A stretch of 64,000 nucleotides of DNA from Dehalococcoidia bacterium (GTDB lineage Bacteria; Chloroflexota; Dehalococcoidia; Bin125), in contig CAXXRD010000002.1 in assembly GCA_963663895.2 (NCBI GenBank), forward strand, positions 192,001-256,000, in the 5' to 3' direction. The first letter of the stretch is position 1. Every line of letters begins with the position of its first letter. This document shows, in pieces, positions 46,721 through 53,968 of the stretch. The notes beneath the pieces were generated by a model. The model had not been told where the DNA came from. It ran no database searches and saw only the letters and a program-made list of their open reading frames with translations. Made by a program: the position numbers and the translations under genes.

Positions 46721-47251
46721 CTAGCTGCCAATAAAGCGGCGCCATGACAGATGTTTGCGGACCGCAGCGAGATAGGCGCCTTTGAATGGTGCGCTAGCGC
46801 TCAAGTCGATGTCCGCGATATTCATCTGTTCGTCCTGCTCAATGGGCTCCATCTCCCATGCACGACGCATTGCATCACCAGCTGTGTGCCTAGTTTCTCT
46901 GATCAATGCATCATATTTCTCAGCGACGTTCAGAGACTCGGTGTGTAGCCATGCAGCATGAAAAGCTAATCGCTCTTGCACCGCACGAATCTCAGTCGAG
47001 ATACGGATACGCTCGTCCTCGGGCATGCTCACTCGACGGCGGCGGATGACGAAGGGGAATTCTTCGTAGGCGACGACTGCAGCCAGCGCATCGGCGAATC
47101 GCTCCCGCCTGCGTGCCTTTGTCTCCCTACGTACGGTAAGCCAGCCACCAACGATCTGCCCGCTGAGCGCCAGTACACCAGGCAGCGCTGCCGCAACGAG
47201 GGCTGCGACGGCAATCGGCCATTCCAGTACTGCCATGCTAGCTAAGGTCAA
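46721..47251 (-). CDS. Small membrane protein, putative CBASS effector
   Basis: N-terminal hydrophobic segment, then a basic stretch and a helical soluble domain; 4-nt overlap with the E2 stop. Confidence 0.75.
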   Translation of the reverse strand: MTLASMAVLEWPIAVAALVAAALPGVLALSGQIVGGWLTVRRETKARRRERFADALAAVVAYEEFPFVIRRRRVSMPEDERIRISTEIRAVQERLAFHAAWLHTESLNVAEKYDALIRETRHTAGDAMRRAWEMEPIEQDEQMNIADIDLSASAPFKGAYLAAVRKHLSWRRFIGS

Positions 47252-47745
47252 GTTGCGAGGTCCTTCCGAGCGAGGACACCGTGAGGGGCTTCAGGCCCGA
47301 GCCATTTGGCCTTACCGTATTTTGCAATGTCTTCTCGGTAAAATCCTTCGCGAATTAGGTGGGTTCGGACGTGGCCGAGGAGCGCAAGGAGCCCGTCTTC
47401 CTCTTGCCAGCGAGACTCACGCGGATCCCCCGGATACCACATGCAGAGCCTGATACGGCCTTTCCCTTCGACAAGGTATCGGTGTGGCGATTCCGTGGGA
47501 CCATCGACAACTACCCGAACCTCTTGGCCTCCGTCCGACCCTCCGAGCATGCCTATGCTGGGCAGGCTCAGTGGTACGAGGATGTCAACCTTACGTGGTT
47601 CAAATCGGTCTGGCTTGATGGTCACAAGATACCGAGTACCGATCGGCTCCCCAGGGACGCTGATCCGACGCTCTAGTTCAGGGTAGATGTCGAAGACACC
47701 ACGCTCGAACCATGGCTCAGCAAGCACCGAGCCTGTCGCCTCCAT
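47248..47745 (-). CDS. Prokaryotic E2 ubiquitin-conjugating-like protein (start 47745, 47727 or 47760)
   Basis: SPHRY..RLCMWYP..RW (E2 His..LC..W pattern) and C-terminal WLGPEAPHG. Confidence 0.75.
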   Translation of the reverse strand: MEATGSVLAEPWFERGVFDIYPELERRISVPGEPIGTRYLVTIKPDRFEPRKVDILVPLSLPSIGMLGGSDGGQEVRVVVDGPTESPHRYLVEGKGRIRLCMWYPGDPRESRWQEEDGLLALLGHVRTHLIREGFYREDIAKYGKAKWLGPEAPHGVLARKDLAT

Positions 47746-48751
47746 ACGCGCGGGTGTCACGCTGACGTTCCCTGTCTTTGCTCAGCGCTGGGAATCCGGC
47801 GACCGTGAATAGCTTGCCGCCGCTCTCCAGGGATGTCCGCATTTCTGAGTCAGACACCGGGCATGCTTCAACTCGCGAGGGGAACAGTTGGGAGAGTGAG
47901 GTACGCACAGCGCATTCGTCTTCCGCATTGGCAAGGGCTTCACGCACCAACCGACCAGCCCGGGTCCAGCGCTTCACCGCTATCGAGCGCTTGAGCAGAG
48001 TCTTGATCGGGGGTGACACGCCAGCTGGATCGAGAGTCTCGTGCGCCTCAAGATCATCCGCTCCATACTCAAACAGTTCCGCGAGTGCAATCCCCAGGGA
48101 CTTGCCAGCCTCGACGCTCCCCAATGCAAGCGCTTCTATGTTGAACGAACAGATGGCTTTCTCCGAATACTCCACGTTCTCGCCCTTGGCCAACCGGATG
48201 ATCCGTGCCCGGTTCTGTCGGAGCGTTCTCGGCTCCGCAGTCAGCAGCCTCGTGTGGCATTCGGGATGGGAAGCATCCCAACCAGCCTTCTCAATGTTGG
48301 GGATCCACAGACCAGGCTGAGGATCCTTTCGTGTGAGAGCAACGATCAGGTCGACTTGAGGATCGGTGCCGTCCGACAAGGGCTCCCCGTAGGTGACGCG
48401 GATCGCTCGTTTTGTCACACGGAATGCGATGTCTGGATGCTCCGGCTTCAATTGCTCCCGGAGGAAGGCTCGCACGTCATTGATCACCTCGGAGGGCCCT
48501 TCACCCTCGCCGTCGGGGCCCAGACTCAAATAGGCGCGCCTGTCGAGGACGATTCCGCAGTCGGCATCGGTGTCGAAATTGGCTGTGCGGTGCGCGAGCG
48601 AACCGGACCAGTACGTCCGCAGACACCCGGAATATCTGGCCGAAGCCGTCAGCACCTCGTCGCGCCGTTTTCGAGCCGTCATGATGACGTCGTCCCCGGG
48701 GTGCAGCTTTTTGAGCACGTCCTCTAGAATCTCGTTCACATAATTCGTCAC
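47717..48751 (-). CDS. cGAS/DncV-like nucleotidyltransferase (CD-NTase)
   Basis: Pol-beta fold SGSLAHRT..DADC with a third Asp in VDLIVA; IP..W..SHP, IRLAK, SFNIE, DPAG; C-terminus RAYGG-DRLGAC. Confidence 0.85.
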   Translation of the reverse strand: MTNYVNEILEDVLKKLHPGDDVIMTARKRRDEVLTASARYSGCLRTYWSGSLAHRTANFDTDADCGIVLDRRAYLSLGPDGEGEGPSEVINDVRAFLREQLKPEHPDIAFRVTKRAIRVTYGEPLSDGTDPQVDLIVALTRKDPQPGLWIPNIEKAGWDASHPECHTRLLTAEPRTLRQNRARIIRLAKGENVEYSEKAICSFNIEALALGSVEAGKSLGIALAELFEYGADDLEAHETLDPAGVSPPIKTLLKRSIAVKRWTRAGRLVREALANAEDECAVRTSLSQLFPSRVEACPVSDSEMRTSLESGGKLFTVAGFPALSKDRERQRDTRAYGGDRLGAC

Positions 48752-48868: not shown

Positions 48869-49243
48869 TTGACGAAATTGACCTACCAGGCACTGTGTGG
48901 GATATTGGACTCTAAGAATCAGGAGTTGAACCTTCTGAAGATCGACGCTATCTATCGGCACGTTGGCGGTGAGATCCAGCGCGCGCGAAAGCGCCGCGGG
49001 ATGACCCAGAGTGCCTTAGCTACCCGTGCCGACCTCACCCGAACCTCAGTATGCAACATTGAATCTGGCCGGCAACGCCTGACCATCCATGCCCTGCTCA
49101 AGATGGCAGCTGCGCTCGACGTATCCCCTGCCGATCTGCTCCCAGATCCCCAGACTCCGCCTTTGCCCGACCTGCACATGTTGATGGAACGGGGAGCGAG
49201 CCGGGAGGAAGCGGATAGGCTGACACGCATTCTCTCTTCTTAG
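48869..49243 (+). CDS. XRE-family HTH regulator (CapH-like); true start probably near 48926-48935
   Basis: RARKRRGMTQSALA..LTRTSVCNIESGRQ..AAALDVSPADLL. Confidence 0.85.
   Translation: MTKLTYQALCGILDSKNQELNLLKIDAIYRHVGGEIQRARKRRGMTQSALATRADLTRTSVCNIESGRQRLTIHALLKMAAALDVSPADLLPDPQTPPLPDLHMLMERGASREEADRLTRILSS
48878..48906 (+). promoter_or_regulatory. Candidate divergent promoter for the HTH-peptidase pair
   Basis: TTGACC-N17-GATATT with an extended TGn; AGGAG at 48921. Confidence 0.45.
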
Positions 49244-49252
49244 GAGCGAGCC

Positions 49253-49771
49253 ATGACGAGATTTATCTCCGAGGAGAAAATTAGACGTGAAGTGGAGACC
49301 CTTTTCGAACAGGTCGGCATTGAAGGACCTCCCGTTCCCGTAGAGGAGGTTGCGCGTTCACTAAACGCGCGTGTGATTCTCGAACCTTTCAAGACGGATC
49401 TGTCGGGCGTTCTCCATCTAGTGGAGGAGGGCCCCGTCATAGGTGTCAACTCGGCGCAGAGTCGAGCGCGCCAGCGATTTACCATCGCGCACGAGTTGGG
49501 GCACCTGAGATTGCACGGTGAGGAAACGTTCGTTGATCGGGCTTTCACTTTCCGGCGCGATCAGAAAGCAGCAGCAGGCACCGCGCGACAGGAAATCCAG
49601 GCCAATATTTTCGCAGCAGAATTGCTAATGCCGAAACGCTGGCTCGTCGAAGACATTGAGAATCAAGACATCGATATAGCGGATGATCAAGCGCTGCGGG
49701 ATCTAACGCAGCGCTATGACGTGAGCCATGCTGCGCTGGCATTTCGCCTTGCTAATCTACAGCTAGGGTAG
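49253..49771 (+). CDS. ImmA/IrrE family metallopeptidase (CapP-like)
   Basis: RQRFTIAHELGH, EIQANIFAAELLMP, VSHAALAFRL; AGGAG RBS. Confidence 0.9.
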   Translation: MTRFISEEKIRREVETLFEQVGIEGPPVPVEEVARSLNARVILEPFKTDLSGVLHLVEEGPVIGVNSAQSRARQRFTIAHELGHLRLHGEETFVDRAFTFRRDQKAAAGTARQEIQANIFAAELLMPKRWLVEDIENQDIDIADDQALRDLTQRYDVSHAALAFRLANLQLG

Positions 49772-49904: not shown

Positions 49905-50480
49905 CTAGCTCTCGCATCCAACGCCATCCTGGTCCCGTCCGTCGAACCGATGCGGGTCGTTTCCGACGACCAGGAAGCGGCGATGGGGGATGTCACCATA
50001 GTCAAGGTCCGGCCGAAAGGGCGGGATGCACACATCGGGATACGACGGATCACAGCGGATACTGGACTCCGACGCCAGCGCGGGTGCCGCTACTGGCGCG
50101 GGTTCTGATGCCGCCTCACTATTGGCCGCCCCACAGCCAGCAAGCCACGCGGTGATGGTGACCTGCTCCGTCACGGTCAGAGTGAGAACCCACGCCTGCT
50201 TCACATCGCGGTCCTACCGCGCATAGGCGCACTGCTCGCCGCCGTGTCGATAATCATGGCCGCAATGCCGGTCAACTGGTCCGGCGTGTGACTCCCCTTG
50301 CTGGCGTTGAACGATTGCACCGTCAGGTTCAGGTCCACCCGATCACTGGAGAAGAGAGCCTTCATCGTTGCGGACCAGTCGCAGCCCCCCGACACGTGCG
50401 GATCCCGGAGCGCCACGTGGTGATCGTGCGTGATAGCCCGCGAATTCACGGCATCGTACGTTTCGTCCAAGTCGGTGCGG
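49905..50480 (-). pseudogene. Remnant of a DUF1524/HNH-type nuclease gene with a C-terminal Excalibur-like Ca-binding domain
   Basis: DHHVAL..SFNASKG, then CDPSYPDVCIP..DPHRFDGRDQDGVGCE; frames broken. Confidence 0.6.
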
Positions 50481-50636
50481 TCAGGCGTCCTTCACCCCCA
50501 GGTGGTGTCCCAGGAGGGAGGCTTGGCATAAGGAGTATTGTTGGCTGAAACTAAGGCACCCTGCGGGTGGCCTGGTTTAGGGCTAATTGTTGGGTCTAGA
50601 TCGAGAGCGATCGCAACAGGTGTGCATAATACGCGG

Positions 50637-51521
50637 ATGGATTCCATGACCGACCGAGTCCCCACCCGTGAAGAGCTATGCCTGCCGACCCTCCGGGTTC
50701 TTCAGCAGCGAGGCGGGTCGGCCTCCATTCGGGAGATCTCCGATGACATGGCGGTCCTCCTGGAGCTTCCGGATGCCGTGCGCGAGGTGGCTCACGGCGA
50801 TGGTCCGCAATCGGAGTTCGACTACCAGGCGGCCTGGGCACGGACCTTCCTGAAACACATGGACGCGGCCACGAACAGCAGCCGGGGCGTGTGGTCGATA
50901 ACCGAGCACGGAAGAGATCTCACCGCAGAGGCCGACACGGCAGAGGCCGTCGTTCAGGGCAGGATTCTTGAGCACATCCGAAGCTACCAGAAGTCCTTCA
51001 CCCGTCGGGCCAAGAACGCGCCCGCGGCTGATTCACTCGGCAGCACGGAAGACGACGCGGACACCGAATGGACAAACGAATTGCTCGGTGCGTTGAGGGA
51101 GATGCCCCCAGACGCCTTCGAGCGCCTCTGCCAACGGCTTCTCAGGGAAAAAGGATTCACCAAAGTGGAGGTCACCGGTCGCCCAGGCGACGGCGGAATT
51201 GACGGCATTGGCGTCCTGAGGGTCAATCTCATCTCGTTCCAGATCGTCTTCCAGTGCAAGCGCTATGCGGATTTGGTCGGCTCCAGGGCGATTCGTGACT
51301 TCCGGGGATCGATGGTAGGCCGCGCCGACAAAGGCCTCTTCATGACAACGGGCCGGTTCAGTCCGAGCGCGCAGCAGGAAGCCGTTCGCGATGGGGCTCC
51401 AGCCATCGACTTGATCGACGGAAATGAGCTGTGCGGTCTCCTAAAAGAGCTTGATCTCGGCGTACGGACCGAGACGGCCGAGAGAGTGATCGTTGAGGCG
51501 AGCTTTTTCGAGTCGATCTAG
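50637..51521 (+). CDS. mrr: Mrr type IV restriction endonuclease
   Basis: Mrr N-terminal wHTH (AWARTFL..RGVWSIT), FERLC..GDGGIDG..QCKRY, KGLFMTTGRFS, IDLIDG. Confidence 0.9.
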   Translation: MDSMTDRVPTREELCLPTLRVLQQRGGSASIREISDDMAVLLELPDAVREVAHGDGPQSEFDYQAAWARTFLKHMDAATNSSRGVWSITEHGRDLTAEADTAEAVVQGRILEHIRSYQKSFTRRAKNAPAADSLGSTEDDADTEWTNELLGALREMPPDAFERLCQRLLREKGFTKVEVTGRPGDGGIDGIGVLRVNLISFQIVFQCKRYADLVGSRAIRDFRGSMVGRADKGLFMTTGRFSPSAQQEAVRDGAPAIDLIDGNELCGLLKELDLGVRTETAERVIVEASFFESI

Positions 51522-53791: not shown

Positions 53792-53968
53792 CGAGCCAGG
53801 CAGTGATGGTGGCCTGCTCCGCAGCGGTTAGGGTGAGAGGTCCCATCCTTGTTTCACGGCGCGGTGCTGATGCTCATAGCGTACTGCGCCGCCGCCGTGT
53901 CGATAATCCGGGCCGCGATGCCGGTTAACCGATCCGGCGTGCGACTCCCCTGGCTGGCGTTGAACGAT
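53792..53968 (-). pseudogene. Second diverged remnant of the HNH/DUF1524-like gene at 50141-50315
   Basis: SFNASQGSRTPDRLTGIAARIIDTAA vs SFNASKGSHTPDQLTGIAAMIIDTAA. Confidence 0.75.

Follow-up and report, generated by a model that had tools for sequence, protein, structure and literature searches.

Does the small membrane protein encoded last in a cyclase-containing operon of a Dehalococcoidia genome represent a new class of CBASS effector, and how would such a protein act? The operon lies in a 64,000-nucleotide stretch of DNA (the whole stretch analysed here, hereafter the window), and the original prediction, made from the sequence alone, had named the last gene a candidate for a new effector class consisting of an N-terminal membrane segment and an unfamiliar helical domain. 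In this study, profile and defence-model searches, structure prediction and a survey of relatives and their gene neighbourhoods were combined to analyze this protein, focusing on its classification, topology, fold, conservation and genomic context.

Organization of the operon and its surroundings

The genes of the operon and the divergent pair beside it are as follows.

46721..47251, minus strand: 1TM CBASS effector gene (open reading frame list, PADLOC 1TM models, 652 homologous clusters)
47248..47760, minus strand: E2-only ubiquitin-conjugating-like protein, 170 aa (PADLOC PDLC00867, E 1.1e-21; PDLC00874; PDLC00869)
47717..48751, minus strand: CD-NTase-type oligonucleotide cyclase, 344 aa (PADLOC PDLC00777, E 1e-103)
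48869..49243, plus strand: CapH-like HTH regulator, transcribed away from the operon (Pfam HTH_3, E 4.2e-13; PADLOC capH PDLC04142, E 5.2e-11)
49253..49771, plus strand: CapP-like M78 (IrrE-type) metallopeptidase (Pfam Peptidase_M78, E 4.2e-25; PADLOC capP PDLC04141, E 7.6e-33)

The open reading frame first described was recovered with unchanged coordinates (46721-47251, minus strand); it encodes 176 aa from a TTG start or 171 aa from an in-frame ATG at codon 6. The TTG start overlaps the stop codon of the E2 gene as TTGA and has GGAAGGA 9 nt upstream of it; the window's own database entry for the protein (P0001) takes the ATG start, with 171 aa and 100% identity, and the hydrophobic segment is retained with either start. 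Both motifs singled out earlier are present, RRETKARRRER at residues 41-51 and YEEFPFVIRRR at residues 62-72, and the conserved arginines R70-R72 correspond to window positions 47036-47044.

The three minus-strand genes follow one another in the order cyclase (344 aa), E2 (170 aa) and effector (176 aa, last), so that cyclase and E2 stand directly upstream of the effector; the cyclase and E2 frames overlap by 44 nt as listed (47717-47760). The cyclase also gave a match to NCBIfam CBASS_cyclase_b (8.8e-17) that falls short of the cut-off set for the model, and the PADLOC matches of the 170-aa protein were to E2 models only. The system is an E2-only (type II short) CBASS, a class defined in the introduction of a 2026 mLife paper, with a cyclase and a stand-alone E2 and with neither an E1 domain nor a JAB peptidase; 616 E2-only systems are counted in that introduction and in the preprint of Yan et al. 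The last gene is the non-enzymatic member of the operon and its product the presumptive membrane effector, as had been proposed. An acyl-CoA dehydrogenase gene flanks the operon on one side and the CapH/CapP pair on the other, and a second effector candidate is absent from the three genes and their flanks.

The CapH/CapP arrangement matches that described for CBASS promoters in the literature accounts available to us. Within the 117-bp spacer between the cyclase and capH, the sole result of a search for an operator was a weak inverted repeat of 16 nt with 75% complementarity, and a search for a promoter gave one promoter-like site, at chance level. G+C content drops from ~0.69 to 0.55-0.61 over about 46.5-50 kb of the window, which suggests an acquired island. 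A Mrr-type type IV restriction endonuclease gene (50538-51521, plus strand; Mrr_N and Mrr_cat domains; PADLOC mREase_IV, E 2.8e-26) lies ~0.8 kb past CapP, and together with the low-G+C CBASS stretch it looks like a small defence island. This gene, a 245-aa membrane-protein reading frame and a solute-binding protein gene are flanked by a 79-nt direct repeat (50237-50315 and 53890-53968, 90% identical, spaced 3653 nt). Both copies are inside short minus-strand reading frames, whose peptides resemble each other and match nothing in Pfam; the copies may be leftovers of a duplicated gene or insertion ends.

Assignment to the 1TM effector class

The protein was searched against the PADLOC models under that resource's general cut-offs (E 1e-5, coverage 30%). 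It matched the 'Effector, 1TM' model PDLC00666 with E 6.7e-28, residues 7-147 aligning to positions 13-149 of the 174-position profile, and the second 'Effector, 1TM' model PDLC00665 with E 2.5e-18; none of the PADLOC effector models other than 1TM matched the reading frame. Each of the 77 relatives in our alignment likewise matched both 1TM models (E<=1e-5), so the whole family is the catalogued 1TM class. According to their Methods, the PADLOC CBASS models were made by clustering proteins of the loci listed in Millman et al. 2020, whose scheme, as papers citing it describe it, contains a '1TM' effector class beside 2TM and 4TM. The window protein is a member of the CBASS 1TM class, with nothing separating the two: it matches the family HMM, has one predicted TM helix, and its gene shares an operon with that of a CD-NTase cyclase. 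The protein thus clearly matches an effector already on record, though of a family without a Cap number, which is the outcome that the original prediction had named as removing its novelty; the proposal of a new effector class is not supported.

Other resources say little about the family. At E<=1 the sole Pfam row was a sub-threshold PsaM match on the TM segment, and no SAVED, STING, TIR, patatin or nuclease signature was present, in agreement with the first reading. NCBIfam and PHROGs gave no credible match, and the copies of Pfam and NCBIfam that were searched hold no model of the family. The published descriptions accessible to us treat '1TM' as a category by TM count and operon position only, and the 'effector' label of the class appears to rest on operon position. 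Our literature search found no study of the structure, fold, ligand or killing activity of the 1TM family, although subscription papers and supplements may hold more. Elsewhere '1TM' stands only as an element of Rst_2TM_1TM_TIR, the designation of a separate system.

Membrane topology and predicted fold

The protein is divided into two predicted parts.

47138..47215, minus strand: single TM helix spanning about residues 13-38 in an N-out, C-in orientation (Kyte-Doolittle peak, positive-inside rule, AlphaFold2)
46748..47137, minus strand: cytoplasmic four-helix bundle, residues 39-168, presumed signal-sensing (AlphaFold2, structural matches, conservation)

Kyte-Doolittle scores were above 1.6 in all 19-residue windows that begin at residues 1-18 and reached their maximum, 2.19, at residue 13. 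An N-terminal hydrophobic segment by the same measure (KD19>1.6) was present in 75 of the 77 relatives, and this crude count gave one segment in 54 proteins, two in 19, three in 2 and none in 2. In 76/77 sequences the 15 residues that follow the TM segment contain more lysine and arginine than the stretch before it (means 4.6 vs 0.3), which under the positive-inside rule predicts an outside N-terminus and a cytoplasmic bundle; the outside part of the window protein would amount to only ~12 residues.

AlphaFold2 run with the alignment of relatives (A1) gave a mean pLDDT of 94.1 and a pTM of 0.82, the five models ranging from 93.2 to 94.2, with helices at residues 13-63, 65-70, 77-105, 107-133 and 151-168 and no strands. 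The helix 13-63 runs unbroken from the membrane into the soluble domain, so that one TM helix, not two, is predicted; of the one or two N-terminal membrane helices first suggested, the hydrophobic stretch was confirmed and the second TM helix was not. The helical domain expected after the basic segment was recovered, the model being all-helical beyond the TM part, and DSSP assigned only helices to this pLDDT-94 model, in keeping with the earlier statement that a beta-barrel is lacking. SAVED, STING and NUDIX domains all contain beta-sheets. In the model the TM helix continues straight into helix 1 of an up-down four-helix bundle, and judging from the helix order the conserved arginines and aromatics (Y62-R72, R81, R83, W132 and, with them, D140) are predicted to lie mostly at the membrane-distal end.

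Foldseek searches with the effector model returned no match at E<=1e-3 either in the PDB or among the BFVD viral structures, where a SLATT protein reached an E of only 1.3. VIA-align, which searched 48,161 chains, placed four-helix-bundle sensor domains at the head of its ranking, the best being the HK9 sensor 3va9 (Z 10.4, rmsd 3.2 Å over 115 residues); PcaY (Z 9.6), TorS (9.3), MCP2201 (9.3), Tar (8.8) and Tsr (8.2) were among the others. For helical bundles a Z below ~13 may reflect a common arrangement only, and with values of 8-10.4 we therefore claim a four-helix-bundle fold and not homology. A PDB sequence search with the family profile gave marginal matches only, Spo0A (E 0.003) and keratin (E 0.009) being the best; these were rejected as chance helical, arginine-rich likeness and are not among the 50 best VIA-align matches. 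Prediction of a two-copy complex gave an ipSAE of 0.01 in both runs (mark 0.42), a result that speaks neither for nor against oligomerisation.

Among known structures the protein looks most like the domains through which histidine kinases and chemoreceptors receive their signals, and this raises the alternative that it is not the killer at all. It would then be anchored in the membrane as a sensor or regulator, informing the cyclase and E2 of an envelope event during infection, and something else would kill. The absence of experimental support for the effector label in our literature search is compatible with this. However, the bundle is predicted to be cytoplasmic rather than external, the extracellular N-terminus is very short, neither the three-gene operon nor its flanks (acyl-CoA dehydrogenase, CapH/CapP) offer another effector candidate, and CBASS, as the literature accounts present it, needs a nucleotide-responsive effector. 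We regard a purely sensory role as unlikely and retain the membrane effector as the preferred reading.

Family size and sequence conservation

When 1.84 billion representatives were searched exhaustively with phmmer, 652 clusters reached E<=1e-3; of these, 266 passed a limit of 1e-10 and 17 one of 1e-30, a family size that, going by sequence similarity, is far above chance. Within the 77-sequence alignment of relatives (A1) R71 and W132 are invariant, and A55, Y62, E64, R72, R81, Q92, L116, G125 and D140 are conserved in at least 90% of the sequences. Eight columns are basic in at least 80%, all of them arginine (R47, R49, R70, R71, R72, R81, R83 and R121), and seven are aromatic at the same level (F52, Y62, F65, F67, Y113, W132 and Y160).

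Six longer relatives (P0091, P0145, P0146, P0128, P0083 and P0129; 288-382 aa) keep the first TM helix and the bundle and carry, after a low-complexity linker, one to about four extra C-terminal TM helices. Retention of the bundle while the extra helices vary fits a conserved sensor module joined to a variable membrane module. Pfam detected no enzymatic domain in 13 longer relatives, the one sub-threshold match being Cation_ATPase_C on the extra TM helices, and a word-based search for longer or fused forms found none, which is weak evidence. Thus no fusion to an enzyme marks the bundle as a portable sensor, a point that counts against the explanation preferred here.

An ESM Atlas feature search returned one neighbouring cluster (score 0.95) in which 55% of the members carry PF27072 KilB, and KilB of pIJ101 has a similar layout, an N-terminal hydrophobic segment followed by an alanine-rich helical region. 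On these grounds the protein might belong with the KilB-like plasmid-spread or 'kil' membrane proteins that Actinomycetota have, its place beside CBASS genes being a matter of chance. The profile comparison does not support the lead, since hhalign of A1 with the single pIJ101 KilB sequence gave a probability of 0.2% and E 0.32 over 18 columns, and chance placement is at odds with the tight linkage to cyclase and E2 in 45/54 loci described below. This origin appears extremely improbable, and the KilB candidate was rejected in favour of the 1TM family.

Genomic context of relatives

A scan of contigs with the single effector protein as query found no relatives. A profile search with a 17-sequence alignment (A2), taking one genome per species, yielded 54 loci, for which cyclase and E2 were sought by tblastn with the window's proteins and then by PADLOC on selected reading frames. 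The hosts are Chloroflexota (mainly Dehalococcoidia), many Actinomycetota, one member of the Dormibacterota and one Saccharimonadales MAG; the genome of the window has a single copy of the family.

The order cyclase-E2-effector on one strand was found at 45 of the 54 loci; a cyclase gene adjoins the effector gene at 46 and an E2 gene lies upstream of it at 48. Homologs of the effector are thus not mostly found without cyclases, the outcome that the original prediction had named as telling against it. At one Dehalococcoidia contig (L047, 1662-3181) the effector gene comes first and is followed by a different cyclase (PDLC00802, E 8.7e-38); no E2 was seen on this 3.6-kb contig, so that the effector family is not strictly tied to E2-type systems. 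Two loci are cut by contig ends (L009, L042), the former still with an E2, and two others (L051, L053), where an E2 is accompanied by no more than a partial effector match, look decayed. Neither cyclase nor E2 was found among the tested reading frames at the four loci L028, L029, L049 and L052. At L028 (4206-6822) a 278-aa homolog with a C-terminal extension adjoins an opposite-strand PDC-S01 candidate defence gene (E 6e-161).

Pairwise identities over 40 loci with long matches were correlated between cyclase and effector (r 0.85), cyclase and E2 (0.75) and E2 and effector (0.65), and for each of the three gene pairs 0/2000 permutations of the identity matrices reached the observed r. These sequence identities show that the three genes have been inherited as one module, r being a measure that does not separate co-adaptation from shared descent. 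A capP-like match (tblastn with the window's protein) was obtained at only 2/54 loci (L018, L045), so the CapH/CapP pair is not a fixed part of the module. On the 991-kb linear plasmid pRWAY01 of Rhodococcus sp. WAY2 (L057, 897617-899546) three consecutive CDS have a window-like arrangement with the effector homolog last; RefSeq labels all three 'hypothetical protein', and the match is established for the effector only.

The substrate of the E2 protein

The effector had also been suggested as a conjugation target of the E2. In this alternative the effector is an E2 substrate or membrane anchor, and a covalent link to the cyclase or the E2 switches it on or places the cyclase at the membrane. 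Such a role would fit the position of the effector gene directly after E2 in 48/54 loci, the TTGA translational coupling in the window and the lack of a recognisable nucleotide-binding domain in Pfam and NCBIfam. A conserved acceptor is missing, however: no column of A1 has lysine in more than 19/77 sequences or cysteine in more than 14/77, and the locus with a different cyclase has the effector on a short contig where no E2 was seen.

The cyclase offers a candidate substrate of the kind already described. The window cyclase ends in ...TRAYGGDRLGAC, with the motif region TRAYGG+DRLGAC, and [RQS][AS][YFW]G plus a short tail stands at the C-terminus of 42 of the 45 linked cyclases; in the remaining three (L011, L045, L050) the reading-frame extension ran beyond the match. 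According to the mLife 2026 introduction and the preprint of Yan et al., the E2 that has been studied processes the C-terminus of the cyclase, which becomes joined first to the E2's own cysteine and later to lysines, giving poly-cGAS, and this Serratia E2-CBASS makes 3',2'-cGAMP, which is sensed by a 2TM-SAVED effector. The glycine motif and tail of the linked cyclases resemble the tail processed in the Serratia system, whose E2 thus acts on the cyclase itself while its effector is a nucleotide sensor; comparison of the window cyclase and E2 with solved structures, the Serratia proteins included, gave no close sequence match. The tail motif and the absence of a conserved effector lysine point to the cyclase, rather than the effector, as the E2 substrate. 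Conjugation to the effector is accordingly not favoured, and we consider a substrate or anchor role decidedly unlikely beside that of a nucleotide-responsive 1TM effector.

Comparison with known systems

Papers citing the original descriptions present Cap13 as TM-STING, Cap14 as TM-SAVED, Cap16 as TM-NUDIX and Cap15 as a TM segment with a beta-barrel. Cap15 is alike in having an N-terminal membrane segment and a small cytoplasmic C-terminal domain and in being encoded in a CBASS operon; in the accounts we could draw on it is reported to bind cyclic dinucleotides, to oligomerise and to disrupt the inner membrane, and it serves as the working model for the window effector, which differs in being an all-alpha four-helix bundle with no strands and one TM helix. 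Cap13, Cap14 (described as a 2TM-SAVED channel activated by 2',3'-cGAMP) and Cap16 are likewise membrane-anchored CBASS effectors and are reported to be nucleotide-gated, whereas the window effector has no STING, SAVED or NUDIX domain (Pfam at E<=1; none in NCBIfam), is all-alpha and, at 176 aa, is much smaller. It also differs from SLATT proteins, which have two TM helices, in its single TM helix and in the absence of a Pfam SLATT match at E<=1.

The bundles of chemoreceptors and kinases (Tar, Tsr, PcaY, TorS, NarX, HK9) share the up-down four helices, the first of which continues a TM helix (Z 8-10.4), but they have only 5-11% identity to the effector, no Pfam match links them to it, and they are extracellular between two TM helices, whereas the effector's bundle is predicted to be cytoplasmic. 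Csx28 of type VI-B CRISPR, described as a membrane pore that slows metabolism on infection, is another small defence-associated membrane protein; the likeness is one of functional analogy only, because Csx28 is activated by Cas13b and not by a cyclase, and neither a sequence nor a fold match to the effector was seen.

Proposed mechanism and significance

Taking family identity and mechanism jointly, the best explanation, and one that we think reasonably probable, is that the protein is the 1TM effector of an E2-only CBASS anti-phage operon. Upon infection, the cyclase, primed by the E2 at its own C-terminal tail, would produce a cyclic oligonucleotide. This would bind at the end of the bundle that is far from the membrane and rich in arginines and aromatics (Y62, E64, R70-R72, R81, R83, W132 and D140), and the continuous helix would relay the resulting change to the TM segment. 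The TM helices would then associate and breach or depolarise the membrane, and the infection would be aborted. Other CBASS TM effectors are described, in the sources available to us, as binding nucleotides, oligomerising and disrupting the inner membrane. What the analysis establishes for the window protein is its family, its operon, its topology and its predicted fold; analogy with Cap14-16 leads us to add that its bundle may bind a ligand, that it may oligomerise and that it may damage the membrane.

A new kind of nucleotide-binding domain in this effector is plausible. A broader reading, held tentatively and, with its parts taken together, somewhat short of probable in our view, is that the tethered bundle may be a fifth type of receptor for the cyclic oligonucleotides of CBASS, with no relationship to SAVED, STING, the Cap15 beta-barrel and NUDIX. 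The protein would then work as an inside-out chemoreceptor, in which a ligand bound to a distal arginine/aromatic tip acts through one helix on a single TM segment, from which a lethal pore is assembled, and effectors of this kind would be the ones usually employed by E2-only CBASS systems in Actinomycetota and Chloroflexota.

As a gene call the finding is ordinary, adding a further copy to a CBASS effector family already recognised by standard defence-finding tools. The confident all-helical model and the conserved arginine and aromatic residues nevertheless suggest specific mutants and a soluble fragment (roughly residues 40-176), with which it could be tested whether a further receptor fold exists in CBASS in addition to the four already described.
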